A stretch of DNA of 60,932 nucleotides, the filler included, from Hausera hauseri (lineage: Eukaryota): the NCBI GenBank assembly GCA_046269625.1. It is 12 parts of 12 records of this genome, joined end to end, with 100 filler letters (N's around TTAATTAATTAA, not from the genome) between each part and the next. Parts side by side here need not be neighbours in the genome. Positions count along the whole stretch, not along the records: positions 50,992 to 56,499 come from JBJURY010239295.1; 11 more parts are not named here. One strand, written 5' to 3'. Under the pieces are notes generated by a model. The model was not told the origin of the DNA. It did not search any database and was given only the letters and a program-made list of their open reading frames with translations. Position 1 is the first letter of the stretch. Each line of letters begins with the position of its first letter. This document shows positions 7,184-56,935 of the stretch, one piece after another. The translations under genes were made by a program, and so were the position numbers.

Positions 7184-7800
7184 TTATACAATGACGGTTC
7201 CGTTTCTCTTTATTTCAACCTCTGCATCAAATACACCGTAAATGTACATCACGGTAGATTGCTCCAAAGCTTTGGCAAAATGAACCTCCAGTCGCAGGTT
7301 TCCCTGCTGAGGTAGTTGAGTCTGTTCAACGTCATAATCCGGAGCCAGGACAAACGTAAAGAATGGATAGGTGGACTTGAACAAATCCACCGATATGCCA
7401 TTGTTGACATTTTTATTCAACAAACCCATGTTGCGCACGATAGATTGAATATATGTGCAAACATAATCATTAGACTCAAAGTCTTGTTTGTACATCTCAA
7501 CGAAATCCGCATTCCGACCCAAACTGATGTAATTCACCTTGCTATGGGTAAACGTTTCCGACTCGGTGGTATAACTGCTCGTTTGTTGAGCAGTCGTTTC
7601 AAATGAAACGAGCACAAATTTCGACAATGACACGTCGCGAAACAGTGCACCTTTGTAAAACGTAGTTGAACCTTTGGGTATGGTGTAAAAGACGAATTCG
7701 CGCGTTGTATCTGGTAAGAGGCATTTTGTGTTTCCAAGCCCAATCGATATCCCATGATCACAGATGGTTCTACCTTTATTTATTGAATCTGTGATGCAAA
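7184..7800 (-). pseudogene. Polinton major capsid protein (double jelly-roll), C-terminal half
   Basis: FYTIPKG..., FTFVLAPD...GNLRLEVHFAKAL...YIYGVFDAEVEIKRNG, the typical Polinton MCP C-terminus. Frameshift near 7700. Confidence 0.85.
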
Positions 7801-7803
7801 AAT

Positions 7804-8796
7804 TCAACTCGGTGCAGTGTATCCGTGCCACTTGACGAGATATTGTTTATTCGAACGTTTGCCACGTGAACGTAAAATCTGAATACGATATAAATCGGGT
7901 TTCCCGGGCTGTACCTGCAGTTCCTGTTTGTAGAATTTACCACGTATTTTCTTACCGTTTTCGTCCTTTAAAGCATACATGACAGGTGTTTGTTTTGCGT
8001 TGATTGTCGAAATGCGGAAAACCTCGTCGCTCCAGTTCTGATTGAAATTCTTAATGATTAGCGTCGTACTTATTTTCGAAATACGTACGTAAGCACCGAT
8101 TTTATATTTTGGGCGTTTATTTGTCTGTCGTTGTGATAGGTTTTGATAAAGCCACATGTCCAAATCATCTATTACGTCAATCGACCGTAATCCATTGATG
8201 CCACGATGTATCGAATAATTGTATAAATGAATAAAATCCAGCAGCACATCTACTCAGCGTTTGTTGTCTTGCTTCGTAAAGAATTTGTTTAGGTGACCAC
8301 GCAATGTTCGATTAAATCGTTCAACGAGTGCAGCCTTGTATTGGGAAAACACCAAGTAGTGGTTGACGCCGAACCGCTTCAAAACCGCTGCAACGTGGGC
8401 GTTGTAGAATTCCTTAACCAAATCCGTTTTTAAATGCTTCGGCTGTTGTTGTATCAGTGTTTGGACAGCGTGGTTGTTATTGTTCAATTGATCTGTGAAC
8501 AGCTATTGCACGTGCAAAACGACTAAACACATCAACACATGTCAGCACGTACCGATACCCAACATTGATGCTGGCGTACGGAATCATTTCCATCAGAACC
8601 ATTTGCCATACGTTATTTACACCGGCAGCACGGTATGCACGAGTTGGAAACCGCCTTCTTATCGGTTAGTTCAGGCTGTATGCTGTTTCCCGAGCCAACG
8701 TTGGGTTTGTTGCCGAGTCTGTTTTATAGTCTTTGCCAGTTTGTCGATGCCAGTATAGCCGACGGGATGACGCGGATCGAACCACACGTCGCCTAT
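7804..8796 (-). pseudogene. Polinton retroviral-like integrase with C-terminal chromodomain
   Basis: KAALVERFNRTL, YKIGAYVRISK, NWSDEVFRI, GKFYKQELQ and QYLVKWHGY; several breaks. Confidence 0.9.
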
Positions 8797-12579: not shown

Positions 12580-13589
12580 CAATCTGCGATGCAAATATCA
12601 AAGTCGAAGTAATGTATCCATGCCACTTGACGAGGTATTGTTTATTCGAACCTTTGCCGCGTGAACTTAGAATTACCTTGAATACGATACACATAAGGTT
12701 TTTCCAGTAGTACTTTCAGTTCCAGTTCGTAAAATTTGCCAAGGTTTTCGTTACCATTTTTATCGTCTAAAACGTGCATAACAGATGTTTTATGATAATT
12801 GCTGAAATTCGGAAACCTTATCGCTCCAGTTCTAATTGAAATTTTTAATCAATGGTGTCGTACTCAGTTTCGAAATACCTATATGATAACCGATTTTATA
12901 CTTGAAACGTTTAGTCGGCCGTCGTCGTCGTTATATTTGGTTTTTGTAAAGCCACATGTCTATATCATCGGTTAAATCAACCGGCCGTAATCTATTGATG
13001 CCACGATGTGTCAAATGGTTGTATGCATGTATAATATCCAGTTGTACATCTACCCAACGTTTATTGCCCTGCTTGGTAAGGAATTTGGTTAGTCGACCGC
13101 GTAAGGTTCGATTTAATCGTTCAATGAGTACAGCTTTGTTTTGCGAAAACAACGATATGTGGTTTACACCAAACCGCCTCAAAACCAATGCGACATGGGT
13201 GTTGTAAAATTTTTTACCCAAATCCGTTTATACATGTTTCGGTGGTTGTTGTTCTATTAATGTGTAATCAGCATCGGCAATATCTTTACCGGATTCAGAT
13301 TTGACAGCTATTGCACCTGCAAAACGACTAAACACATCAATACTCATCAGCACGTACCAATATAAATCGTTAATACTGGCACACACAATCAATTCCATCA
13401 GATAAATTTGTCCTGCAAAACGGTATGCACGACTTGGAAACCGTTCTTTTATCTGTTTGTTTAAGCTGTATGATAACTGTTTCCCCAGCCAACGTTGGGT
13501 TTGTCGCCGAGTCTGTTTGACAGTCTTTGCCAATTTGTCGACGCATGTATACACGACGGGATGACGCGGTCGAACTACACGTCGCCCAT
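12580..13589 (-). pseudogene. Polinton integrase with chromodomain
   Basis: YVLMSIDVFSRFA, KAVLIERLNRTL, NWSDKVSE and a KWHGY-type chromodomain end. Confidence 0.9.
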
Positions 13590-13730
13590 CGTTGCCGTCG
13601 GTGTTGTCGATAAAATCGTTTTTGTCAGCATTACAGAAATTAGAACGAAACGTTAATGAAAAATTCGGCAAATTGGGACAAAATAATGAAAACCATGCAC
13701 AAATATCGCCAAATCATCATATACTTACCG

Positions 13731-18235: not shown

Positions 18236-20822
18236 TGACAACAATATATCAATCAATATCTTGGGATTGGATGAGGAGGACAAATTCTATTCCCTGCAGA
18301 TATGCGATACTGAATTGGAAGATCATAGGGTTCTGCTCCTACTAGACGATGGAGAAAAAAACATTATGTTTGGATCAAAGACTTTGAGCGGCTAGTCAGA
18401 TCACAAATTACGAAACATAATGGACAAATAAAAATATGTAAACAATGCTTGTCCCATTTCAGCGACGATGTAGCTCTATTGAAGCCGAAAGAGAACAAGA
18501 TGTACTGCAACAACAATTAATGTATCAGGCCAGAATTTCCCAAGGAGGATTACATTGAATACAAGAAGTTCGAGAAGAAGATCAAGGTCCAAATAGTTAT
18601 GTATTGCGACTTTGAGGCTATTCTGCGTCTAGTTCAGAGTTGCAGTCATAATCCCCAACACAGCAGCACAACGGCATACCAATATCATGAACTCTCGTCA
18701 TATTGTATGTATGCCAAAGGACTGGACAGTGAAACATATCTATTCAGAGGTCCAGGCGCAGCAGTTCATTTCATAAAGCGACTTGAAGATATGGCTCATA
18801 GGATTGGAGATATGCAGTAGCGGCATAAGGATGCAATGGGCATGTTAAAGCAGCAAGAAGAATGGCGCAAGGCAACAGCATGTTACTTGTGCTCCAAATC
18901 ATTCACTAGGGAGAATCATAAAGTCATGGATCATTGCCATTTTACAGGAAAATATCGGGGCGCGGCATGCTACAACTGCAAACTACGTTGCAAAACATGT
19001 ACATATGTGCCTGTAGTGTTCCATAATCTCAGGGGCTATGATTCCCACTTCATTGTTCGGGAACTGGGAAACATTGAAGGAAACATTGATGTGATCCCTA
19101 ATAGTGAGGAAAAATACATCACCTTCACGAAGCATGTTGGGAAAATTAGGCTTCGCTTCGTAGACAGTTTCCGTTTCATGTCGTCTTCACTTGACAGTTT
19201 AGTGAAAAACCTCCCTGCAGAAGAACTCAAGGAGACGAAGTGGTTCTTTCCCACTGCATTTGACCTCGTCAATAGGAAATGCGTGTTTCCCTATGAATAC
19301 ATAACTTCAAGAAAAACACTGAATGAGACGTCATTGCCGGCCAAGAAGGACTTTTGCAATATCCTCTCTGATTGCGATATCACTGATTCTGACTACCAGC
19401 ATGCTTAGAACGTCTGGGATGCATTTCAGTGCCGAACATTAGCTGCTGTTGATGGATGTCTTTAGGAGTTTCAGGGATGGTACGATGAACAGCCATGCAC
19501 TGGATCCGGCTCATTCCTTTACAGCTCCAGGGATGAGTTGGGCAGCTATGCTGCGCAATATAAGTATTAGGCCGCAGATCATAAAGGATTACAACATGAT
19601 CCTCATGATTAAGAGACGCATTATAGGCGGAATATGCTAGGCCATTCACCGGTATAGCGAGGCCAACAACAAGTATATGGCCCAGTATGATCCATCCAAG
19701 GAATCCACATATATATACCTGGATTCCAACAACTTTTATGGATAGGTAATGAGCGTCCCATTGCCATATGATAACTTCAAGTGGGTCGAGCATTCTGAAA
19801 ACATCCCTATACTAGACGTGGACCCCACTGGAGATACGGGCTACATACTGCAGGTATATATGGAATACCGGACTTCTGTCCACACAAGGCATTAATAGCT
19901 ACCTTTCCTCCATGAGAGCAAGCCTCCGCCCCATGGAAAGCATAGAAAGTTGCTCTGCCATAGGAGAGGTAGAGGTAGTCCGCTGCATAAATCTCCAGTG
20001 GGCGGTCAGGAATAGACTCCGCATTACTAAGATCCATAGAGCCCTGCAGTTCAGCCAGTCCATGTGGCTGCAACCCTACATAGACCTGAATTCGAAGCTG
20101 CGGACTAATGCCTAGAACGATTTTGAGAAGGATCAATTCAAGCTATACAACAACAGCGTTTTTGGCAAGACAATGGAGAATATCCACAACAGAATCAACA
20201 TCTAACTGGTCTCTGAGTGGAAGCGGGCAAAGAAGCTCATTGCCAAGCCAAACTTCCACAGCAGCATCATATATGGTGAGAACTTGGTCAGCATCTATAT
20301 GCTGAATACAGCATCAGTATTCAACAAGCCCATATATGTGGGTATGACAATCCTCGACATATCAAAGACCCTCATGTATCATTTCCACTACGACATTATG
20401 GTCAACAAGTTCAAGTCCATGCCGCTGATGTATACAGAAACTGATAGTTTCGTCCATCAGATCCATACAGAGGACATTTATGAAGACTTTGCCCAGTTGG
20501 CAGAGCATATGGATACCTCGGACTATCCGAAGGATCATGCCAACTATTAAATTGCCAACAAAAAGATCCTTGGGAAATTCAAAGACGAGATGAATAGGGC
20601 AATAATATCGAGATTTGTGGCTCTCAGATCTAAAATGTATGCCGTAGATGTATGTGGCCAAATAAAGATGCGGGCAAAGGGGGTTCAAAGGTCTACATTG
20701 GCCAAAAAGATCAGTTTCCAAGACTATGTGACAGTTTTGCAGGAACAGACTCACATTATATCGGAAATGAAAAGGATCCAATCTAGGAATCATAACATCC
20801 AAACAGTAACTCTGCATAAGAA
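18236..20822 (+). pseudogene. Polinton pPolB with endonuclease VII/HNH insert
   Basis: YCDFEA (ExoI), DHCHFTGKYRGAACYNC, VFHNLRGYDSH, YLDSNN.YG, KLYNNSVFGKTMEN, YTETDS and RSKMY; many stops and frameshifts. Confidence 0.93.
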
Positions 20823-20949
20823 NNNNNNNNNNNNNNNNNNNNNNNNNNNNNNNNNNNNNNNNNNNNTTAATTAATTAANNNNNNNNNNNNNNNNNNNNNN
20901 NNNNNNNNNNNNNNNNNNNNNNTCAATATAAAAAATTTATACTATCTTA

Positions 20950-22041
20950 CATTGGAACATGAAAAGGAAAGAAAAACATTTATCGAAGTGGCATCTACGT
21001 TTCCTTTCATTCAAGAACATCTGAAAATAGAAAACATGGATTATTTTCGGAGACAAAACATCGAAAGTGAACGAAGAACTATACGGCTGTTGATGCAGCG
21101 CATTGCGAAGATTCATCGAATTATTCCCGAATACAATACGTTCAATATAGACGGGACTTCATTAGTCATGAATATTCTTACATCTGACCGCGCTAATATT
21201 CCAGCGAATATACTTTAACTTAGTCTATCGAAATATTTGATGGGTTGTATGATGACTGAGACAGATACAGCAGAAAAGGTTGAATATAACACCGGATATG
21301 TCGAAATACGAAATTGTGTTCTTCGCGAGTATCTCGATATTTATATCAACATACCCAATGGGTACAAGAATCTCTTAAAAACCGAGAACCCTTGAAGCCA
21401 AATGGCGAACATATAGCGAGTGATGTTGTCAATAATAGGCTTATGAAATTCAGCAAAGTTAGTATCGAAATGTGCGACACCTTGGCCAAATCCATTGTAC
21501 AAATCATTTACAGAAATGATTCGGAAGCTTACTGATGGCTATTCGAAATGTTCTTGGGACATTTCCACGATAACTGTTAACGAAATTGTAACACTTTCTT
21601 CATTGTTCATTATGGTTTCACAATCAGACTCTTTAAATGATCAATTATCAACGAATATTGCTTCTAAAATGTTTTTTGAAATCGATGAAGGTGAATTGGA
21701 CAAATACAAGTCTAAATCTAAATCATGTTTTGAAAATAGATTTGACTGATGAAATTATTAGTCAAATTCGTTGGGCAAAGAAAGTGGTAATTTGTGTTAT
21801 TCGAGTGTCATTGCAAGCGGACACATACGACAACATACATAAGACTCACTGTCAACACAAGTCACTTTGGAATGAACTGTATTACTTCATTAAGGAGTCA
21901 AAACTCGCAGTTACCGGTAAACGAATGAGAACAAGAAGCCAATGTAGTTTATCAGAAAAAAATTGGATATCGTATTGGAGTTTATTGATAAAAGTCAATT
22001 CGTCGGAAAGGATGGTTTTAATGACATTCTCGATAATCTGA
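20950..22041 (+). pseudogene. Degenerate unknown coding sequence
   Basis: Overlapping chain of plus-strand ORFs in shifting frames; no recognisable motif. Confidence 0.35.
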
Positions 22042-22959
22042 TTTCAGGAAGGAAGGTATATCTCATATTGTTTCACATTTTTACTTTCGCCTTTGGGTAA
22101 TAAAATGCCGTTTAAGAGCGGTAATCTCCCTAAACTATTCACGCAAACGTAAAAACTCCCAATCTACAAAAGGATCCGGAAACGTATTTTATTCCGGAAT
22201 TCTATCGAAATTACCGTGGAAATTAAACATGTCATTTTTAAGAAAGTAGCCTCTGTGGTGCCACGGTCGCCGGCTGCTCGATCTCTCGTCCGGATGCTAG
22301 TTGTCAATGTAATGAACTTTTCGGCAATATCCGACAATCGAATCTTCACTGTCTTAGTCTTTCTCGTCAATATCCGACAATCAAAAAGTTGCTAGCATGT
22401 CGAATCTCATGCGAAAACTCAATACCCAAAAAGTCAAATAGATACAAGTTCTCAAGAGATTATGAAAACCATGAAGGACTACGAGAATAAACTTTCAATG
22501 TAATGGACTTTTCGGCAATATCCGACAATCGAATCTTCACTGTACAAAAAATTAATTCAATCTCAAGCAAGATGATTATGATGAAGTTGCGTTGTAATTT
22601 TTGAATCGGTAACGGTCATTCAATGGTTGCTAATTTAGGTTTCGGGTGTTTTCTTATTTGTTCTTTTTCTTTATTGAATTAGATGATATTCTCTTTTGTT
22701 ATTATTTGTTTATTAATGTTTACTCAATGAGATTGTCTTTCATTCGTGTTTTTAGTTTGGTTTGAAGTGTATCATATTCACTGAATTACACACAAATGAA
22801 CATAGACAATTGATTCAGTTTTCTTTTATTTTCTTGTATGAATTTTTTTGTGTAATGTAAATATTGAATTGATAATAGATGTTGGTTTTAAAAATTTAAA
22901 AAAGAAATTTTTGAATAATACACATTTTGGATTTTATATTTGGATTCTATCTTCGTTAT

Positions 22960-25310
22960 ATTAATTGGAACATTGAGCATCTAGTAAGATCTCAAATAAC
23001 AACAAATCATGGAAGAGTTGAAATCTGTAAAAGATGTCTGTCCCATTTCGGTGGCGTTGTACCTATGGAGAAGCTTGCTAAGCACAAGATATACTGCAGC
23101 AACAATTATTGTATCATGGCAGAATTTCCCAAGCAGGACTATATTGAATTCAAAGAGTTTGAAAAGAAGCTCAAGGTCCCAATAATCATCTATTGCGACT
23201 TTGAAGCAATCCCGAGTCCGATTCAGAGTTGTAACCACAATCCGCAACAAAGCAGTACAATGACATACCAATATCACGAACTCTCGTCATATTGTATATA
23301 TGCAAAAGTAATGGACAAGGACTCATTTATTTTCAGGGGTCCAAATTAAGCAGCACATTTTATGAAGAGATTAGAAGATACGTCCCATAGGATAGAAGTT
23401 ATGTTGCAGCAACATAACGATTTGGATCAAATAACTATGTTGAAGATGCAAAAAGAAGAATGGCTCAAGGCAACAACATGCTACTTGTGCTGCAATTCCT
23501 TCACTAAGAAAAATCACAAAGTCATGGATCACTGCCATTTTACGGGCACATATCGAGGTGCAGCCTGCAACAATTGAAATCTACGTTGACATTTGTTCCT
23601 GTAGTATTTAACAATTTCAGTGACTATAATTCCCGTTTCATATTCCAAAAACTGGGAAACATTGAAGGTAACATCGACGTAATTCTTAACAATGAGGTGA
23701 AATATGTCATATTTACGAAACATGTTGAAAAGTCGTACTCCGCTTCGTAGGCAGATTTTGATTCATATCTTTTTCACTTGACAGCTTAGTGAAGAACCGC
23801 CCAGCAGAAGATCTCAAGGAGACGAAGCGGTTCTTTCCAACTACATTTGACTTGGTCAAGAGGAAAAGAGTGTTTCCCTATGATTACATCCCAACATGGG
23901 GAACACTAGACAAAATAGCATTGCCGGCCAAGATAGACTTTTACAGTCAACTCTCAGACAGTGATATCAGCGATACGGATTCTCAACATGCACAAAAGGT
24001 CTGGGAAGCATTCAAATGTAGGACGATAGGAGAATACAGTGACATATACCTCAAGACGGACGTGTTGCTGCTGACAGATATATTTGAAAGCTTCCGGGAT
24101 GTAACACTAGTAATCCACAAGTTGGATCCATCTCATTTCTTCACAGCTCCAGGAATTAGTTGGGTAGATATGCTGCTCTATACCGGTATTAGACTGCAGA
24201 TCTTGAAGTATTATGATATGATCCGCATTATTAAGACAGGCATTAGAAGTGGAATATGCCAGGCCATTTACCGATATAATGAGGCCAATAACAAATATAT
24301 GGCCGAATATGATCCAGCCCAGGCATCCTCATATATTACCTACTTGGATGCCAACAACTTGTATGGATGGGCAATGAGAGCCTCACTGCAGTATGATAAC
24401 TTCCAATGGGTCAAGCATCCCGAAGACTTAGCAATATAAGATGTAAATTCCAATGGAAATACGAGCTGCATACTGGAGGTAAATGTTGAATATCCATATA
24501 ATATTCATACAATGCATAAACAGTTGCCTTTCTCCCTGAGAACAAGCAGCCACCTAATGATAAACATAGAAAACTTCTCTGTCATCTGGAGAACAGGGAA
24601 AGATGTGTAGCCCATTACATCAATCTCCAGCAAGCAATGAAGAATGGACTCCGCATCATGAAGATCCGTCGGGCCCTGAAGTCCAGTCCATGTGGCTGCA
24701 ACCATATATTGCCTTTAGCACTCAGCTGCGGCCAATGCCAAAAACGATTTCGAGAAATATCAGTTCAAGCTGTACAACAACAGCGTTTTTGGCAAACAGG
24801 ATAAACATAGAACTGGTCTCTGATTTTAAAAGTGCTAAAAAGCTGATTGCTAATCCAAACTTTCAAAACAGTACCGTATACACGGCAAACTTGGTCAGTA
24901 TTCATATGCTGAAGACACCTCTCGAGTTCAACAAGCCAATTTATGTGGGCATGTCAATACTGGACATATCAAAATCCTTGATGTATGACTTCCACTACGA
25001 CATCATGGTCCCCACATTCAATGACTCTGTGGCTTATGTATATGAATACCGACAGTTTCATAAATCAGATCCATACAGATGACATCTATGAGGACTTTGC
25101 TCAACTGGCGCAGCATATAGATTCGTCCGACTATCCAAAAGACCATAGGAATTTCTCTGTAAAGAACAAAAAAATCCTTGGGAAATTCAAAAAATGAGGT
25201 AAATGCGGCAATCATCCCAAGATTTGTAGCACTTAGGTCCAAAATGTATTCAATTGATGTATGTGGCCAAGTAAAGAAGAGGACCAAGGTTGATCAAAGA
25301 ACAATCTGTT
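22960..25310 (+). pseudogene. Polinton pPolB, second diverged copy
   Basis: IYCDFEA, DHCHFTGTYRGAACNN, YLKTDVLLLTDIFE, YLDANNLYGWAM, KPIYVGMSILDISK and YMNTDS. Confidence 0.93.
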
Positions 25311-30694: not shown

Positions 30695-33605
30695 TATTAT
30701 TGAAGAAATATTGAGTTATAGAGTGGGAATTGAGGGAAATACTGGCATTGATTCAACATATTATAATGTGAAAATAAGTGGGGAGAAGATTGTCGATGAC
30801 GCACGTTCAGAGCGGCAATATTTAGTGAAATGGAGGGGGTGGAGTCACATTCATGCTTCGTGGGAATCTGAATCCAGTTTATCTCTTTATCAATATCTCG
30901 ATGGAATGAAGAAATTTTACAAATACAAGGAAGTTCAAAAGGTTAGAGAAAATTGGAAAAAGAATTATGCGTCACCAGAGGATCTCGATGCAGCACAGTT
31001 TGAAGAAGAGCGAAACGAAGTTTTATTACAGCAGAAAATGGAATGTGAAAGGATAATCGATGTCCAACGAAACAAGAATTCAGATTCACTGGATTATCTG
31101 ATCAAATGGAAAACCATTGATTATCGGTATTCAACATGGGAATCTGGGGATGACATTGTCAAACCTCTTTTTCCCGATGCCATTAAGATGTTTGAGGAAC
31201 GCAGTCGGTCTGGATTGATTCCGAATAGAAAATCTGAAGTTTGGTCCAAACGACCAAAATTCACACCGATGCGTGAACAGCCCACTTTCCTTAGTCACAA
31301 TTCCGATTTGATTCTGAGGGATTACCAGTTGGATGGAATGAATTGGTTGGCACGAGCGTGGACGAGAGGAAACAGTGTCATTTTAGCTGATGAAATGGGG
31401 CTCGGGAAAACTATTCAAACGATAAGTTTTCTCGTTTATTTATTCAATTAACATCATATGTACGGTCCATCCTTATTGGTCATTCCATTTAGTATTATTG
31501 GAAATTGGCAGACGGAATTTTCATTATGGGCTCCATACATGAATGTAATTGTATATACAGGTGACACTGTATCTCGTCAAGTAATTAGGGAATGCGAGTG
31601 GTATTTTCCGAAGAAAAAAATGCTCAAATTTCATGTTTGTATCACAACATACGAGCTGCTATTGAAAGATAAGGCATGGTTGAATAAGACTAATTGGGCG
31701 TTCTTAGGGGTTAATGAGGCACATCGATTAAAAAATGACGGAAGTCAGTTATATCAGGCGCTGTTTACTTTCGATACAAACACTCGACTATTAATTACAG
31801 GTACTCCAGTTCATAATTCACTAAAAGAGTTATGGGCTTTGTTATATTTTATTATGCCCGATAAGTTTGATATCTGGGAGGACTTCGAAGACAGATACAA
31901 TTTGACCAATGAAAACTGTTCTGTTGGGGAAATAAATCACGAACTATACAAAGTTCCAGAACCGTTTCTATTGCGAAGAACAAAGAAGGACGTCGAGAAA
32001 TCGTTACCATCTAAAAGTGAACAGATTATAAGAGTGCCAATGTGCCGAAAACAAGCGGACTTATATAAATTAATCTTGACCAAAAATTTTGAAGCTTTTT
32101 CGCGTGAAACGAGAGGTCATACGTCAACATTTCTTAATGTTGTTGTCGAATTAAAAAGTGTTGTAATCATGTTCAATTGGTAAATCCATTGGATGAAGAA
32201 ACAGAACAGAAAATGGATCTTGAAAGTAGGTTAAGGTATTTTATAAAATCCAGTGGTAAAATAATGCTGTTGGATAAACTGCTTTTTGAGCTAAAGGATA
32301 AAGGCCATCGTGTACTTATATTCAGTCAGATGGTCAGAATACTGGATATTATTTCAGATTACTTATTGCTACGTGGTTGGGGGTTTCAGAGACTTGATGG
32401 GTCGATTAAAGGTAGTCTTAGGAAACAAGCTATTGATCATTTCAATGCTGAAGGTTCGACTGACTTTTGCTTTTTACTTTCAACTAGAGCCGGTGGTTTG
32501 GGTATTAATCTAGCAACAGCTGATATAGTTATAATTTTTGATTCTGATTGGAATCCACTGAATGATGTGCAAGCCATGGCTAGAGCTCATCGCATAGGAC
32601 AGACTAAACAGGTTTCGGTGTATAGAATTATAATAAAAAATTCAGTTGAAGAAAAGATTATTGAATGCGCAAAGAGGAAAATGGTCCTAGATCATTTAGT
32701 TATTCAAAGAATGGATAGTGCTTTGCACAGAAAGACTGATGCAAACAAAAATCAGCCATTCAATAAAGACGAATTAAACGAAATTTTAAAGTTTGGTGCC
32801 GCAGATTTATTTAATCAGGATGAATCTATGGACGAAGAGCAAGAATTAAATATTCAGGATATTCTTCAACGGGCTGAAACGAGAGATAACGACGAAGTAG
32901 CTAATAATCCAGCCAATGAGTTACTTTCAGCATTTAAAGTGGTTAATATAACCGAAAATGTTGAAGATGAAGATATTGTCTACATTGGTCATAAAGGAAA
33001 ATCAAAATTATGGAGTGAAATAGTTCCTCAAGAATTTCGGGAGGAAATCAAGGATGAAAAACATCAAATACATTGTTATAACTTGAGTTGGGTCCAAGGC
33101 AACGAAAAAAGGTAAAAGCATATCAAGTAGGTCAACCAGATTCTAGTAGTGATGAAAGTTCCGAGAGTAGTATTAAAGAAGTTACAAAAATGACTCAAAA
33201 AGAGACTAGGCCAATTATAAGAGTTATGAAAAAATTTCCTCGGCCTTTGGAAAGGATCCAGGCAATCATGGTAGAAGCTGAAATTCTTGAAAGGAGCGAA
33301 AGAGAAATCTATGAAACTATGAAGCATATAATTGATGGATGTCAACAAGTAATAAACGATTGTGATTCTGAGGAAAAGAAAAATAAGGTTACATTTAATA
33401 TTGGACGGATAAGTATTTCTGCTAAATCATTTCTACAGTGTATAGAATATTTAGATATTTTGCATACAGTTGTGCCATTAAGCAAAGAAGAGTGTCTAGC
33501 ATACAGGTTACCATTTGAATCCAAACTGGCTAATTGGTCCTGCATATGGGAAACAGAAGACGATGCAAAGTTACTAGTCGGTGTTTATGAACGTGGTATG
33601 GAACA
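30695..33605 (+). pseudogene. CHD1: CHD1/2-type chromatin remodeller, intron-free, disrupted and 3'-truncated
   Basis: Tandem chromodomains ([27 protein letters not shown]), [15 protein letters not shown] changed to [46 protein letters not shown] at 31449 and frameshifts near 32155 and 33070. Confidence 0.92.
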
Positions 33606-33828
33606 GATTAGGAGGCCCTTCAATCTCGAAACTGTTTTCCAACAGCTGCTAACATACTTGAGTCAGTTACTCCAGTCCTAAGCCAGTGGCCAGAAGAATA
33701 ATGCTGAAGCCTTTTTGTGGACGATTAGCTGCGTTGTTAAATATATGAATAGCGAATCGGCTGATAATGCTGCCATTCTGGAGGATTCGCTCACGAACAT
33801 CAAGACTGGCGACAATCTGATCGGTAAG

Positions 33829-42386: not shown

Positions 42387-42857
42387 TTAAACATAGGTGG
42401 TTTTATCCATATCACCAAAGCCAAATTCTTTGAGTTTATTTTGCATCGATTGATTGATACAAAACAGTCTCCATTGTTCCAGTGACATAACACTGAATTC
42501 CGCTTCTTCACAGTGAAGAAAAACGATTTGTGCGATTGCACTGCATTTCGAAAAAGCATACGGTTCGCTGGATTGGTTCTCCAGCAACACCTTAATTTCA
42601 CCACGAAAATCTGAATCAATGACGCCTCCCATAACCGTCAGTCCCAGCTTCGCCAGTCCACTTTTCGATAAAAGTTGGCCGTAGTAACCGGGTGGAATCG
42701 CCAATCGAATCTCAGTCGTTATGCATTTGATTGTACTGTCCGGAATTGTCGTATTGACATTGGAAAACACATCGTAGCATGCACTGTTTGCTGTAACACG
42801 TCTTGGTACAAAAATATTTTCATCTGTTAAGATAATCTTTACATTATTCATTACCAT
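42387..42857 (-). CDS. dut: dUTPase (trimeric type)
   Basis: ACYDV, KSGLA, GVIDSDFRGEI, AIAQ and a C-terminal GFG (motifs 1-5); frame open. Confidence 0.9.
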   Translation of the reverse strand: MVMNNVKIILTDENIFVPRRVTANSACYDVFSNVNTTIPDSTIKCITTEIRLAIPPGYYGQLLSKSGLAKLGLTVMGGVIDSDFRGEIKVLLENQSSEPYAFSKCSAIAQIVFLHCEEAEFSVMSLEQWRLFCINQSMQNKLKEFGFGDMDKTTYV

Positions 42858-42999
42858 TATTCTTATTCCTATACCAATATTAAAATTAAAAATATATTTA
42901 TACTCGTTAATTGGGTTGATGAAAGAAGAACAAAGATAAAACAAAACAAAACAACACTCAATAATACTTATGGTAATTAAAATGTACTTCAGCTACACA

Positions 43000-50891: not shown

Positions 50892-51189
50892 NNNNNNNNN
50901 NNNNNNNNNNNNNNNNNNNNNNNNNNNNNNNNNNNTTAATTAATTAANNNNNNNNNNNNNNNNNNNNNNNNNNNNNNNNNNNNNNNNNNNNTCTCTGCAA
51001 ACGTTTTCAGGTGAACATGAAGGTCAGTATTCTTTGGTATAGTTTTCTTTTGCAGAAACTCTTTGATTTGCTTATCGTCTCATCATCGTGTTGTTTTTGT
51101 AACATCAATTTTTCTTGTTTGGTTATACTCCAGATGGCTGCTATTACACCTGGTTTATACGTTATTTCTTCTTTTTGATCCATTTATTC

Positions 51190-53503
51190 AGGTATTCTTG
51201 ACAAAATCAGCATTTGCGTTGGCCTTACCAGCTTTTTACTCAAACTTTAAGTCGTAGGGCTGAAGTATCATTGCCCATTTCATTAAACGGATATTTGGGT
51301 TCTNNNNNNNNNNTATGATTTTTCAACCACTGTAGCAATTTGTGGTCAGTGTAGAGGACGATTGGTTTAGTTTCCGACAAGTACTATCAGTACTGTTCCA
51401 ACGCATATACTATTGCGAGTAATTCCCTTTCGATCGTGGAAGTTTTTCTCGTGTTTTCTTAACTATCTGCCACCAAACGATATTGGGTGTTCCTGTCATT
51501 GATCGTTTTTTTGTGATAGGACAACTACAATTCCAACTTTACTCGCATCTGTAGCTAAGAAATATGACTTCGACATATTTGGATAAGCCAATATTGGTGG
51601 AGCTAATAATTTATCCTTTAACTGTTGGAACGCTTTTTGACATTCTTGGGTCCAAACGAGTTTAAAGTTTTCTTGTAATAAGGAATGGAACAGAAAGGAT
51701 ATCTGTTGGTAGCCTTTAAAGAATTTTCGATATCCTGTAAGACCGAGGAACTTTCGAACTCGCTTAACTGTTTTCGGGACTGGAAAATCTTGTATTTTAT
51801 TTATTTTTCAAATCTGAGGACTAATGTCTTCGCTGCTTACAGTATGTCCTAAAAATCAACTTTGGTTCTGGCAAAACAACATTTCTTTAAAGTTATTTTT
51901 ATGCCAAGAAGGGCACACCTCTCTAACATATCTTTGAGGTGTTCTTTATGTTGTTCATAGTCACTGGAAGCGATTGACATCATCCACCTAAAACATTATA
52001 CGTGGAACGTCCATCGTTATTATATCCATGGCTGTTTGAAATGTTGCCGGAGAATTTTTCATTCCGAATGCCATTCGGTTAAATTTGTAATGCCCATCTG
52101 CGGTCACGAAAGATGTTTTCTGTTTATCTTCTTCTTGTACTTCTATCGGCCAGAAACGTTTTTATAAATCTAACGTGGTAAATAACATTTTATCTTTCAA
52201 TTTATCCAATAATTCGTCAATTCAAGGTAGTGGATAGATATTGTCTATTGTTACCTCCTTAAGGGCACGGTAAACCATATACATTCTGATAGATCCATCC
52301 TTCTTCCGTACCATTACAATTAGAGCTGCGCATGGAGAATTACTGGGTGTAATTATATCGTGTTTTCTCATTTCAGCTATTATTTCTTTTGATTTTTCTC
52401 TTATCATAATTGAGCCGATATGGCCTCTTTTTAGTAGGGGTTTCTATCCCGGCCTTTAAGTTAATCTCATGTTTAATAACGGGTATTATACCCATGTCAT
52501 ATTCGTCAATAGCTAAGGTATCTTTGTATTGTAATATTTTAATTATGCCTTCTTTTTCAGCATCTGTCAATGTGCTATCCTTACCGAACAAGTCATAATC
52601 GTTCCAGTTAATATGAACGATTAAGAAATTTTATTTTATTATTTTATTAAGATGACTTTTCAACTTATTCATTTGTTTATCTTATAATCCTATTCCTCCT
52701 TCTGTTCTCGGTTTATGTCGTTGCCTTTCCATGAATTCAGACAATTTTTCTACAGTAGAGATAGTAGCTTCCGTTGCGTTATTGCATGTATCTTTTATAT
52801 TATATACATAGGCGATTCTTGTTCCTTTTCTAAGCAACTTAAATTTATTAGAAGCATTAACTATTCGAACAATCACTTGTTGTTCTCGAATGTTATCAAT
52901 TGTATGAGCTAACCATAGCTCATTCTTGTACATGAAGGTTATGTTTGGTTCAATATAAACATCTCCTTTATCTTGACCTTCTACCAAAGCTTTGAGCACA
53001 ATCTCCGTTCTAGCTGGTATTAGCACGTCTTCCTTAATGGCCACTGTGTCCTTTTTCTCATTCTTTGTTTTTCGATATGGCTGGATTTGTTCAGTCTCCA
53101 AGTGTATACACATATCTTTTAATTTTTCTAACGCGTCACATCCGAGTATAGCTGCAGCCACCAATTCGTCGACTATTCTGAATTCCTGTTCCAATTTTTG
53201 GTTAAAAACTTTTGTCTCGCATTTGATTAGATCCTTTACTTGTACTCTAGTTCCAAAATCTCCAACATTTGTAATGTCTTCCGTGGGTTTTTGTAACTTT
53301 TTCTTCAGTTGTTCTGACAGTTGTTTACGTGGGATCATTGAGGCAGATGCACCGGTGTCGATTATAGCTGTAATAGGATATCCATCTATCCAAATTACCG
53401 TTCTCGGAATTACCTTACCTCCTTCTATACTAATTATTAGAGCGTCTTTTGGAGCTGATGGATAAAACATCAGCTTTACATGTTTTGTATCATAATTATC
53501 CAT
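51190..53503 (-). pseudogene. pol: Ty3/Gypsy pol: aspartic protease, RT, RNase H
   Basis: AIIDTGASAS, SNSPCAALIVMVRKKDGSIR, YPLP, RMAFGMKNSPATFQ, *VDD (YxDD), ATDASKVG, ERELLAIV and YTDHK. Confidence 0.93.
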
Positions 53504-53759
53504 ATCGCGTGAGCAATGTATATCTATATATTCATTGCGAGGTATAAAATGTCATTGTTCTATTGGGTATTTACTCCACTTCCTCATTAGTAGGATATCT
53601 GATAACAATGTTCTCCTCTTTTTACTTCGGGCGGTAATCAGACTCCATGTCTTTTTATTATTTTCTACTGGTTTAAGTCTTCTATCGTTTATCTTCTTTA
53701 CTGGAGGTTTATCCTCATCATTATTTCCGTCTTCCTCATTCTTATTGTTATTTTCTGTT

Positions 53760-55610
53760 CCCATTCTGCATCCTTTTTATCAAAAAGCAACTGGCTGTGG
53801 ATGGAATCAGTGCATAAGTAATTTTCCATGTACAACCAGCGGCTTGTTTAATAACACATATCCCTTAGTTATCATGGTAAGAATTGCTTTAATAAAGGCA
53901 AAGATGTAGTAAAATCCTAGCCATCCAGCATTAAACTGACCGAACCACATGTACCATCCCCATGCGGTTGCAAATATATTTTTAGCTATTTTCTTTGAGT
54001 AGTCAGGTCCCATCAAATTTTCCCAGTTAGCTTTCCCGGTGTGATCAGATAACACTTTCATTGCCATCTCCGTTAGAATTTTCTGTCTCTGTTGAGGGAA
54101 CATCATCCTTCTGTGATTTTCCATATCTTTCTCAGAGTACACGCCCGTCTTTACTAGATGTGTTAATGGCTTATACGTTTGTTCAGTTTTTAAATTAATC
54201 AAACTAATTCTCCGAGGTGGAGTAATCTGCTCCTTTTTCGGCATCCTTATCTACAAGTTGTCACTTAGTCAAAATGCTGGCGACATAGTATATGTACAAT
54301 TTTGATGAACATATGGTTTTTCTGCCGGATCCAGTAGTATCCGTGTGATTGGTTGTAAGAAACGCGGCTTTTCCTTGTACCAATCAGGTAACTCCATAGT
54401 ACAGTCAATAGTTGGTCTTAATTTGACAGCTATTTTCGTACACTCGAAAGTTATGAAAGTTTCACCCATCGTTCGAGCGAACTTTCCTTCTGCATCGAGT
54501 GATTGAGATGGACCTTTTATTATTTTATCCGTTATTGCTGACAAATATATCCGATTTCTAATTATTTCCTTATTCAATTTATATTCGTTTAATATTATCT
54601 CTCGACACAGCATAGATATTTTCTTGCTGGAAGTGATAAATAAAATCAATCTTGTTATCGAAATAGAGTCGAGGTTTCACTTCTGATTTATCAATCTTCC
54701 TCTTAGCTTTTATTATTTCTGTTGTGGATAGAAATACCCTTTACAATTTGTTCGAAATACTGTGTGATCACATATCCTGGTATCGCTTTCCAGTTTAAAT
54801 CTCATTCCATCTTGGGGATTTGCTGAATATATTATGGTCGGAGTCTCCATCATATCCGATACTCGGTCTAGTCTGCTCTTAAATATTTCTTCTTTATACA
54901 TTCGTCCTTTTGTTTCATTAAACTTTCCCATTTTTAATAAAGCTAACCGACGCTGATCCCTATCGACTTCGTATGACATAATTGATTCGCTCGTGTCACA
55001 TTCTTTATTATAATAATCACATTCAGGGAATGTCATCATTTTCCCTGAGGATAATTCGAAGAGGGCATAGTATTCTCTCAGCTCAACTTGATAATCTTCA
55101 ATGGCCACTATATTGTCTAAAATTTCGCCATTAATATTGTAGGACTCGACCTTACAATATCCTGTTTTATCAACTGTCTCAGCCGCAAAAATTCTTTTAT
55201 TAATAATTTTTCCTTTCTGAGCCTTGAACCGAATATTCCCAATATTAATATGTTTTGTTACAAAAGCCACTATACACATTCACGTACTTATAGGGAGTGG
55301 CTCGAACGGAGTAATCGGTTCAACTATTTCTGAATTTCGGTACCAATATCCGCAAATAAGGTGAAAGTGATTTTTTTGAACGAAACATTCTTTCACTTTA
55401 GTTTTCACAAATTCCAACTCTTGATAAACGTAGTATTCCTTTTCCGATATTGTAGTTAGTGACGCCGGATTGGTAAATGGACATTTTGCTAAGTTTAGTA
55501 AGGAATATATTGGACCTTCCTTAACTTGACGACAATCGTAAGCAATGATTGAAAGTGCTTTTGATATCAGACTAAGCAGGAGGAGTATAGGTATAACTTT
55601 AGTTAGCCAT
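53760..55610 (-). pseudogene. env: Chuvirus-like class III envelope glycoprotein
   Basis: Signal VIPILLLLSLISKALS then IIAYDC..YSLLNLAKC; MGE...ECTK..V.LRPT.DCTMELP..FLQPITRIL; TGVYSEKDM..HRRMMFP; TM FGQFNAGWLGFYYIFAFIKAILTMITKGY. Cys-rich, about 600 codons. Confidence 0.8.
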
Positions 55611-55619
55611 GATAAATCG

Positions 55620-56499
55620 AGATCTGGTTTTGGGTTTCGCTGGCTTTCTGCTTGTTGGGGTGGATGATATTCTATTCGTTGTTGTGCAATTGGAGCCGAT
55701 TCATGTATTGCTGTATGAACCAAACTGGTAATCCATCCACCTCTGCATTTTACCCATCTTTCGACACTGGATTTTAAGGCTCTTGTAGCGATTTCTATAT
55801 TTCTCTCTATCTCTTTCTAGTTCGGATTTACACCATTTATCACCATTATCTAATATAAGGGATCGGATATTGCTGTCACGATTTTATTTCGGGATATACC
55901 GGTTCCCATCATTCTAGATAATATATCTCTTTCCTGTACCTCATTTATCCTCTCATCCGTAGGGATATCTGCAAATTGTTCACTAATCTTCGCGATCTCA
56001 TTCTTTATAGCTTGCATTAACGAATCCAGTATTTGTAGATTAGTATTGAACTCAACGAATGCAGTATGCGTTCTTGCTAGCAAGGTTTGTAGTAATGTTG
56101 TCAATGATACATTATCTACGTCATATTCATCTTCCGTTGTTAGCAGTCTTAGAACAACTTCGTTGTCTCTGGCTTTCCTGCCTTTCAACTAATAAAGTTT
56201 CGTTGTTCCTTTTGGTCTACCACGGTTTCTTTTATCGGTTTGTATTTGTTCTGATATAGGCATATTCATCCCAACTTTCACTTGTTGAGCCTGATATCGA
56301 TGTTCAGATTCTTGTATTTCTTTTTGCATAACATCAATAATAATTTCGTCAATTACTTCTTGTTCAGTCTGTCTATAAGTAATACACACAGGATTGTATC
56401 GGTTTTCCTAGATACCTGCTTCATATAGAGGTTCATAATCCATCAACGTTCGTCCATAAAAGCGTAACTCTAATTCTCCTTGAGATTGATTTATTTCAT
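55620..56499 (-). pseudogene. Unknown in-frame region upstream of env, with AT-hook-like KRNRGRPKG
   Basis: ORFs 56189..56389, 55850..56188 and 55280..55723 share one frame, separated only by stops; RGRP at 56213-56224. Confidence 0.55.
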
Positions 56500-56599: not shown

Positions 56600-56935
56600 C
56601 TCTTAGAAGCACGGTCCTTTTAGCAGTGTGGTCTTTTAGCAGTGTGGTTCTGTTAGCAGCATGGTTCTGTTAGCAGTGTGGTCTTGTTTGCAGCATGATA
56701 CTGCTAGCAGTGTGGTCCTTTTAGCAGTGTGGTCCTTTTAGCAGCACGGTTTGCTTAGCGGTAAGTTCCTGTTAGCTGCATGGTTCTGTTAGCAGTGTGG
56801 TCCTGTTAGCGTCATGGTTCTGTTAGCAGTGAGGTTCTCTTAGAAGCACGGTCCTTTTAGCAGTGTGGTCTTTTAGCAGTGTGGTTCTGTTAGCAGCATG
56901 GTTCTGTTAGCAGCGTGGCCTGTTAGCAGCATATT
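56600..56935. repeat. Minisatellite, ~19-bp unit TGTTAGCAGTGTGGTTC-like
   Basis: Tandem units visible; the same family recurs at 60115-60443. Confidence 0.9.

Follow-up and report, generated by a model that had tools for sequence, protein, structure and literature searches.

The closest described systems are Ty3/gypsy-type retroelements in which env lies between gag and pol. The planarian element Burro/GYPSM1 encodes Gag, a BCL2-like domain, an env that is in frame between gag and pol, a protease (PR), a dUTPase-like domain and reverse transcriptase-RNase H-integrase (RT-RH-IN), as described by Arkhipova and Yushenova (2019, PMC6431247), whose sources include Jurka 2007 and Grohme et al. 2018; its env matches mononegavirus fusion glycoproteins (PMC6431247). 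GAG-ENV-POL errantiviruses with an HSV/gB-type Env have since been reported from Nematoda, Bryozoa and Platyhelminthes (Chary and Hayashi, eLife 2026, PMC13524379). The layout discussed below is real but already published, in Burro in 2019 (PMC6431247) and as a gene order across phyla in 2026 (PMC13524379). The first-pass annotation of this DNA took env to follow pol normally and the present layout to be unusual; that env after pol is the only known gypsy state, and the present layout unreported, is not supported in view of these two descriptions. Nor is a Bcl-2 domain new to retroelements, as Burro carries a BCL2-like one (PMC6431247).

The window analysed here is a 60,932-nucleotide stretch of joined Hausera hauseri records, of which positions 50992-56499 are one 5,508-base contig that is flanked by artificial N44-TTAATTAATTAA-N44 spacers and contains a gap of 10 N at 51304-51313. 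The whole contig (50992..56499, minus strand, as are all features below) is an internal fragment of a decayed, Burro-like Ty3/gypsy element, as judged by the spacer bounds, colinear tblastn alignment with single-ORF relatives and coverage by contigs of run X1. Both contig ends are internal to the element; Gag, integrase and LTRs lie beyond the contig, and 20-mer comparison found no repeat family above chance 20-mers within the contig. From 52373 to 56497, stops take up 17 of the 1,375 codons of one minus-strand frame, while over the same span the other two minus frames have 123 and 130 stops and the plus frames 53-92, so this is a decayed coding frame rather than a chance one. All nine ORF starts named in the first-pass annotation fall in this frame (55723 being a TTG), and both of the frame excursions it had noticed are real: residues 1079-1128 of the predicted protein P0002 match the shifted frame at 54737-54588 (the excursion at ~54600-54740), and for the one near 53770-53850 the relatives P0006 and P0010 align in the shifted frame over 53852-53763. 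Copies of the element are abundant, with 20,169 contigs of run X1 covering all 30 bins, and the contig is a dead copy of this many-copy Ty3/gypsy element.

Pfam matches give the minus-strand order that had been read from the sequence, namely PF24664 at residues 302-883, retropepsin at 1031-1127 and then pieces of RVT_1 and RT_RNaseH_2. The "unknown ORF" ahead of the glycoprotein was correctly placed, and can now be said to contain a likely Bcl-2-fold domain. Of the Pol domains said to share the frame the protease does so, but in the window copy RT-RNase H does not, being displaced by one frame change near 52440 and by another beyond it.

The Env ectodomain (53918..55549, interrupted by stops and the frame excursion at ~54600-54740) has a class III fusion-protein fold of the chuvirus G/herpesvirus gB type. 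It matches PF24664 (E 9.5e-58), its AF2 monomer model has a pLDDT of 85.7, and the best Foldseek matches of that model are herpesvirus gB (E 7.8e-10) and a chu-like virus G (E 2.7e-31), which bears out the proposed class III fusogen homology. The ectodomain fold, conserved cysteines (12 positions kept at 90% or more), signal and transmembrane (TM) helix of such fusogens are all present, fusion activity itself being a prediction. An internal hydrophobic signal (55541..55597, hydropathy 2.4) lies directly ahead of the conserved Env start, and a similar segment precedes the [AG][YF]DC Env start in 14/14 polyproteins listed; as the first-pass annotation had it, mapping of Met positions finds none between the stop before 55816 and this signal. 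The TM helix is at 53855..53905 (hydropathy 1.8; 1.8-2.5 in 15 relatives). A second, weaker hydrophobic segment follows at 53750..53854, in a shifted frame in the window copy, and matches P0006 969-993 and P0010 1938-1958; its best 19-mer scores 1.1 in the window copy and 0.4-1.7 in relatives. In some relatives it reaches 1.5-1.7, and if it crossed the membrane it would place Pol in the lumen, against the threading model considered below. The Env tree places the window sequence among polyprotein-type Envs, in a clade of 16 rows that is separate from 16 stand-alone glycoproteins (SH-aLRT 98).

The domain just ahead of Env (55700..56113, with BH1- and BH2-like motifs and two stops in the window copy) is likely a copy of the cell-death regulator Bcl-2; the scores are weak, and four comparisons agree. 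PF00452 is matched by 5/5 picked members, which were chosen for testing by their GGW motif, at a best E of 2.3e-5 that is below the Pfam cutoff. All 60 matches shown for a profile of the domain against PDB are Bcl-xL/Bcl-2, and the top 22 rows of the VIA comparison all belong to the Bcl-2 family (Z 6.1-8.9 over 99-123 residues); the structural model of the domain is of low confidence (pLDDT 43), with a best Foldseek E of 0.11. No such domain was detected in P0003, P0004, P0006, P0008, P0012, P0017, P0018, P0027 or P0152, and a search for further carriers gave only the 4 already known. In the ESM Atlas the region ahead of Env (region X) has no usable match, and its Bcl-2-like part has only sub-0.9 leads. 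Weak Pfam matches of region X to SIR2_2, MAGSP, ATG17 and others were taken as helical noise. At 56408..56497 lies the end of a possible, weakly matched ubiquitin/SUMO-like domain, which aligns to P0002 494-523; P0002 473-522 matches PF00240 at E 0.031, below the cutoff, and the window piece alone has no match to it.

The protease (53117..53407) is a retroviral-type aspartic protease with an intact DTG motif (PF00077, E 1.4e-9). Between it and RT is a spacer (52685..53095), conserved in 5 aligned sequences, that may be dUTPase-like: the top 3 of its 5 PDB matches are dUTPases at weak E values of 0.17-0.92, and against Pfam 1/5 members matches PF00692 (E 0.14), the window piece having no match. 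RT and RNase H (51200..52443; PF00078, E 4.5e-8, and PF17919, E 2.8e-16) are spread over several frames, and the RT catalytic motif is interrupted by a stop in the window copy. This region is 36-41% identical to its relatives and its best PDB match is Ty3 RT (E 5e-14); integrase follows RNase H in P0003, P0006, P0018, P0027 and P0152. The close relative P0002 has a Gag of Ty3/gypsy type (dArc2 capsid, E 0.0068; zf-CCHC, E 2.5e-4), and the gypsy identity given in the first-pass annotation thus stands on the PR-RT-RH order, the Ty3 match and this dArc2-type capsid. A BEL/Pao element with a captured glycoprotein, of the Anakin or Atlas kind, was rejected because Env precedes PR and the best RT/RH match is Ty3. 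A metagenome scan with the protease ORF gave a single locus (L001), discarded as a chance 7-residue match in bacterial DNA, and a viral-contig scan with P0002 gave no match. A word-index search for proteins longer than 2,408 amino acids was also empty, but carries no weight because proteins of that size do exist.

The relatives, which were taken from ENA, are predicted proteins, some of them possibly spliced predictions. The nearest, P0002 (1,130 amino acids), is 75% identical to the window copy over 589 amino acids with 2 gaps, and is open at 5/5 of the window stops that it spans. Its predicted ORF runs unbroken from Gag to Env (dArc-like capsid, CCHC zinc knuckle, X, signal, PF24664), and in more distant relatives Env and Pol are likewise predicted as one ORF. 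PF24664 is followed by protease in 11/20 relatives scanned, these 20 being top and long matches from 150 listed and 523 found, and 5 of the 11 also have RT; Env precedes protease in 2/3 further cluster members as well. In P0006 and P0027 a CCHC motif, Env and integrase follow one another within one protein, and P0152 and P0008 align to the window copy from the Env start through protease in one HSP and one frame. The X1 contigs over all 30 bins and the 11/20 relatives support the placing of Env upstream of Pol in other copies and in relatives. The proposal of a single ancestral Gag-X-Env-PR-RT-RH-IN polyprotein with an internal signal is largely borne out, with P0002, P0006 and P0027 in support, but in the window's own family the Env-tail frame gives conflicting signals.

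That tail (53552..53776) is charged and of low complexity, and ends in the single TGA (53552-53554) that, as first described, is all that stands between this post-TM stretch and the protease ORF. In run X1, 34 contigs (69% of summed depth) differ inside this codon and read no stop, so the TGA is absent from most X1 copies covering it and is not a conserved stop between env and PR. The distance from TM to protease is 182 in the window copy and 126-205 in 11/12 relatives. Four X1 records bridge parts of the tail, and their length offsets conflict. No close copy with Env to PR in one ORF is among the relatives recovered, the single-ORF relatives being only 24-34% identical in Env; for this reason, and because of the conflicting offsets, a programmed shift or separate expression of pol is possible in the window family.

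We consider it very probable that the contig is a dead copy of a Burro-type Ty3/gypsy element whose ancestor encoded one Gag-Bcl-2-signal-Env-TM-PR-RT-RH-IN polyprotein, likely threaded through the ER membrane with only Env in the lumen; domain order, class III fold and decay are shown for the window copy. Gag synthesis would be cytosolic, translocation would begin at the internal hydrophobic segment, with signal peptidase cleaving just ahead of the conserved Env start, and the Bcl-2-like domain would then stay on the cytosolic face, held by the same helix. The Env TM helix would stop transfer, the second, weaker segment would lie along the cytosolic leaflet, and PR, RT-RH and IN would afterwards be released by the protease. 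With Env, particles would be able to move between cells, while the likely role of the Bcl-2-like domain would be to influence the death of the cell that produces them. In the available literature on such elements, threading, cleavage and Bcl-2 function are proposals.

A quite unlikely alternative for the junction is that Gag-Bcl-2-Env forms one ORF and ribosomes get to Pol through a programmed frameshift or through readthrough in the Env tail, in which case less Pol than Gag and Env would be made. In the window copy the true Env continuation stops near 53750 and the PR frame opens at 53776, so that the two frames overlap; no majority indel is listed for 53470-53850, and 2/4 bridging X1 records keep the window's frame offset. 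Against this, one bridging record has the single-frame offset, X1 cover falls tenfold there and tail length varies between copies, the indel table fails to list further breaks that are bound to be there, 11/20 relatives are continuous, and the TGA is not family-wide. The frame might instead be continuous with a spliced RNA as an additional or the main source of Env, or with Pol translated from a transcript that has lost Env by splicing; the full polyprotein then need not thread. Drosophila gypsy env is made from spliced RNA, and a 1:1:1 Gag:Env:Pol ratio would seem wasteful; the window copy, however, has no Met near the signal, and threading needs no more than the internal signal that 14/14 polyproteins have in register with their Env start. 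We regard splicing as unlikely.

It is also conceivable, but very unlikely, that the family multiplied in its host with Env already broken, spreading within cells as an ordinary retrotransposon with Env as a relic. P0002 seems to leave the Env frame about where the window copy does, and P0013 begins just past this mid-Env break and itself shifts frame later; from the apparent common break of P0002 and the window copy, the abundant subfamily may have had a broken Env. The break sits in a short repeat, however, where independent slips are plausible, and an ORF that stops within Env also loses Pol, so such copies would not be autonomous. The 12 highly kept cysteine positions of Env, and the intact multicopy gB-type elements of flatworms (PMC13524379), also speak against a relic. 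The possibility that env came in as a nested viral insertion, or reflects misassembly, is largely refuted and can be given hardly any weight: the record does join short contigs of more than one organism, but one frame extends over 1,375 codons, X1 contigs fall in all 30 bins with overlapping records crossing TM, tail and PR, and the same order is found in 11 independent proteins.

The layout is odd in that a membrane protein, preceded by a Bcl-2-like domain, sits inside a Gag-Pol polyprotein. A stronger form of the single-polyprotein reading, which we think rather unlikely, is that this is a compact Burro-type lineage in a non-planarian host in which one helix would serve as the ER signal of Env and, once cleaved, would tail-anchor a functional Bcl-2-family protein that protects the cell making the particles from death; if so, no infectious retrotransposon with an apoptosis regulator of its own would be smaller or easier to test.

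Among known systems, the nematode endogenous retroviruses are alike in being metaviruses with a captured RNA-virus glycoprotein and env ahead of pol. Sacco et al. in 2022 (J Gen Virol) reportedly found a continuous gag-env-pro-pol ORF in them; these elements are not known from outside nematodes, nor to have a Bcl-2 domain, and are set beside the window copy by description. Anakin (BEL/Pao; Dezordi et al. 2020, PMC7642597) is alike in its captured RNA-virus glycoprotein and unlike in belonging to the Belpaoviridae and having a C-terminal Env. Atlas virus (PMC9094657) also has a captured RNA-virus glycoprotein in one polyprotein, but in Gag-Pol-Env order, and differs in being a belpaovirus with Env at the C-terminus and of class II. 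The available text of PMC12440569 (Troyka), PMC10084718, PMC13238120 and PMC8532177 adds nothing on element architecture. The errantiviruses of Chary and Hayashi share a Ty3/gypsy Pol, a gB/chuvirus-type Env between gag and pol, and an ectodomain with a signal or TM on one side and a TM on the other (PMC13524379); they are treated there as three ORFs, and "polyprotein" and "Bcl-2" occur 0 times in the portion of the text available.

The likeness to Burro, judged from its published description, includes a CCHC Gag, a BCL2-like domain directly ahead of env, PR, RT-RH-IN and very many copies, decayed ones among them (PMC6431247). Burro also has a ubiquitin/SUMO-like motif ahead of BCL2 and a dUTPase-like PR-RT spacer (PMC6431247), for which the matches here are weak. 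Burro ORF1 is described as 4,873-5,140 amino acids long with 2-3 CCHC motifs and MATH/BIR/ankyrin/midasin-like parts, in elements of >30 kb (PMC6431247); P0002, unlike Burro, has one CCHC and ~810 residues ahead of Env, with no MATH/BIR/ankyrin/midasin-like Pfam matches at E up to 1. Since the giant N-terminal region with 2-3 CCHC motifs and MATH/midasin-type extras is not found in P0002, we file the element as Burro-like rather than as Burro. Relative to the described systems, what is new here is this compact N-terminal part and the structural support for a class III Env and a Bcl-2 fold, and the open natural relatives offer material for work on threading, cleavage and Bcl-2 function.

The element lies on the minus strand of one contig (50992–56499) of a window made of contigs of about 5 kb strung together by artificial spacers. 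Its coding frame carries 17 stops over 1,375 codons, where the remaining minus frames carry 123 and 130, and a Pfam scan of it, with stops written as X, matches the Monjiviricetes fusion glycoprotein PF24664 at frame residues 302–883 (E = 9.5e-58) and a retropepsin at frame residues 1031–1127; pieces of reverse transcriptase (RT) and RNase H (RH) follow in other frames, the nearest solved structure to the RNase H piece being the Ty3 RT (E = 5e-14). The observed layout, with the glycoprotein (Env) ahead of Pol, is real and was correctly read in the first-pass annotation; the nine ORF starts, the TTG start, the absence of Met ahead of the signal and the one TGA (53552–53554) that it named are all present in the sequence, and both of its local frame excursions are borne out by the sequence and by comparison with relatives. 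It had also placed RT-RH in the frame of Env and the protease (PR), which is not so in the window copy. A stop interrupts the RT catalytic motif, and this copy is no longer functional.

Homology and a predicted structure mark the glycoprotein as a class III fusogen. An AlphaFold2 model of Env from an 85-row alignment (mean pLDDT 85.7) finds herpesvirus gB as its best Foldseek match among solved structures (E = 7.8e-10, TM-score 0.3–0.4), with baculovirus GP64 lower in the list, and glycoproteins of chu-like and related negative-strand viruses as its best among predicted viral structures (E = 2.7e-31); with the PF24664 match, these agree with the fusogen homology suggested earlier. In a quick, midpoint-rooted Env tree, whose 32 rows comprise, besides the window, 15 relatives chosen from the top matches and 16 stand-alone glycoproteins, hand-picked, the window falls within a 16-row clade separate from the stand-alone glycoproteins (SH-aLRT 98).

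The first-pass annotation proposed that the ancestor encoded one polyprotein, (Gag-)X-Env-PR-RT-RH, region X being the ORF ahead of the Env signal. The close relative P0002 (75% identical to the window over 589 residues) is open at all five window stops that it spans and carries, in a single ORF, a capsid (dArc2-like, E = 0.0068), a zinc knuckle, region X, the signal and Env, so at the sequence level the proposal stands from Gag to Env in the close family. It also stands for the wider clade of relatives. A search of cluster representatives found 523 proteins; we scanned 20 of the 150 listed, taking top matches and long proteins, and Env is followed by protease within one protein in 11 of these (RT as well in five of the 11) and in two of three additional cluster members; P0006 and P0027 extend from a CCHC motif to integrase (IN), and P0152 and P0008 each give a single HSP, in one window frame, that begins at the Env start and takes in the protease. 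Continuity from Env to Pol in the close family we only infer, because several points count against it: Env of the single-ORF relatives is 24–34% identical to that of the window, offsets in the Env tail conflict (see below), P0002 seemingly goes out of frame within Env close to where the window copy does (~54600), and the ENA proteins are gene-caller predictions, some of which may be spliced. This apparent break of the window copy and P0002, directly after which another relative, P0013, begins, may have been inherited from a common ancestor, come from slippage on separate occasions or be programmed.

In each of the 14 polyproteins listed a hydrophobic segment directly precedes the conserved start of Env, and the ectodomain is followed by one strong transmembrane segment (hydropathy 1.8–2.5) and then a weaker one (0.4–1.7); the protease lies 182 residues beyond the strong transmembrane segment in the window, and 126–205 residues beyond it in 11 of 12 relatives. 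The simplest reading would be a threaded polyprotein, in which Gag and a Bcl-2-like domain would stay cytosolic, an internal signal would translocate Env, signal peptidase would free it, and Pol would return to the cytosol to be released by the element's own protease; after signal cleavage the signal helix would anchor the Bcl-2-like domain.

There are three rival readings. Pol could arise by a programmed shift within the Env tail, and here four records from sequencing run X1 that bridge parts of the tail disagree in offset, one fitting a single frame, two the discontinuity of the window copy and one neither; on the side of a single ORF, at the TGA ahead of PR, 34 X1 contigs (69% of summed depth, which is not copy number) differ within the codon and read no stop. 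Spliced messages could replace the full polyprotein. Env might already have been dead in the subfamily that spread. We favor the threaded polyprotein. In run X1, 20,169 contigs at 80% identity or more cover all 30 bins of the element, most of them less than 95% identical; the element is a family of many diverged copies, env and pol alike, although X1 may not be independent of the window's source.

Region X probably contains a Bcl-2-fold domain, on weak scores and searches that agree. Weak Pfam matches pointed to a BH2-like W-x4-GGW motif, which lies 56–71 residues ahead of where Env starts in the window, P0002, P0005 and P0010, with a variant in P0007. All five motif-bearing sequences match PF00452 (best E = 2.3e-5, under the Pfam cutoff), and with a profile of the five the 60 PDB matches shown, which align over the BH1-to-BH2 stretch, are without exception Bcl-xL or Bcl-2. 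Because these members were selected by the motif, the domain was folded from element sequences alone, giving a poor model (pLDDT 43); every Foldseek row shown for it is Bcl-2 family (best E = 0.11), as are the top 22 of 48,161 VIA rows, which cover 99–123 residues at Z 6.1–8.9, unrelated rows covering about 60–75. For helical models a VIA Z below 13 is a weak score, so it is the agreement between searches that counts. Nine other long relatives gave no match to the domain. A ubiquitin-like motif ahead of it (E = 0.031) and a dUTPase-like PR-RT spacer (E = 0.17) are weak matches.

The adjoining contig (45893–50891, plus strand) is 52–55% identical, in three frames, to the N-terminal 870 residues of P0010, which has a long Gag-side region, the Bcl-2-like domain and Env, and likely represents the 5' portion of a second family with this architecture; its long Gag-side region has no explanatory Pfam match. 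In the first contig (695–4510, plus strand), a Gag with a zinc knuckle precedes long unexplained ORFs; this Gag resembles those of P0002 (E = 3e-14) and P0012, possibly marking a third related family. A CHD1-like chromatin remodeller with few introns (chromo, SNF2 and helicase C), broken by a stop and frame changes, lies at 30695–33681 (plus strand) and may be a retrocopy. ORFs for protein-primed DNA polymerase B, dUTPase, integrase-like and chromodomain proteins (7184–8253, 13228–13713, 18821–24439 and 42387–42992) are presumably Polinton/Maverick-like. The contig at 56600–60932 holds a nucleoside hydrolase exon (PF01156), a CA microsatellite and repeats that we take, as an impression, to be fish-like; the record likely mixes organisms. 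P0006 (HBK71150.1), a full Env-PR-RT-RH-IN polyprotein, is filed among the hypothetical proteins of a Flavobacteriaceae MAG and likely comes from animal DNA that strayed into the bacterial bin.

Sacco et al. (2022) reportedly described a continuous gag-env-pro-pol ORF in nematodes. The order GAG-ENV-POL with a gB-type Env occurs in nematodes, bryozoans and flatworms, according to PMC13524379. Several relatives (P0152, P0003, P0004, P0008, P0009, P0017 and P0005) have two to six retropepsin-like domains per polyprotein, most of which keep both protease motifs; P0152 (4,844 amino acids) has six, two of them beyond integrase, with ankyrin and C2H2 matches. The section of PMC6431247 on the planarian element Burro makes no mention of such multiple proteases, and the window's element has one. 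Compared with Burro, the N-terminal part is short in P0002 (about 810 residues and one knuckle), so the element is classed as Burro-like: it is a compact Burro-like element of already known layout.
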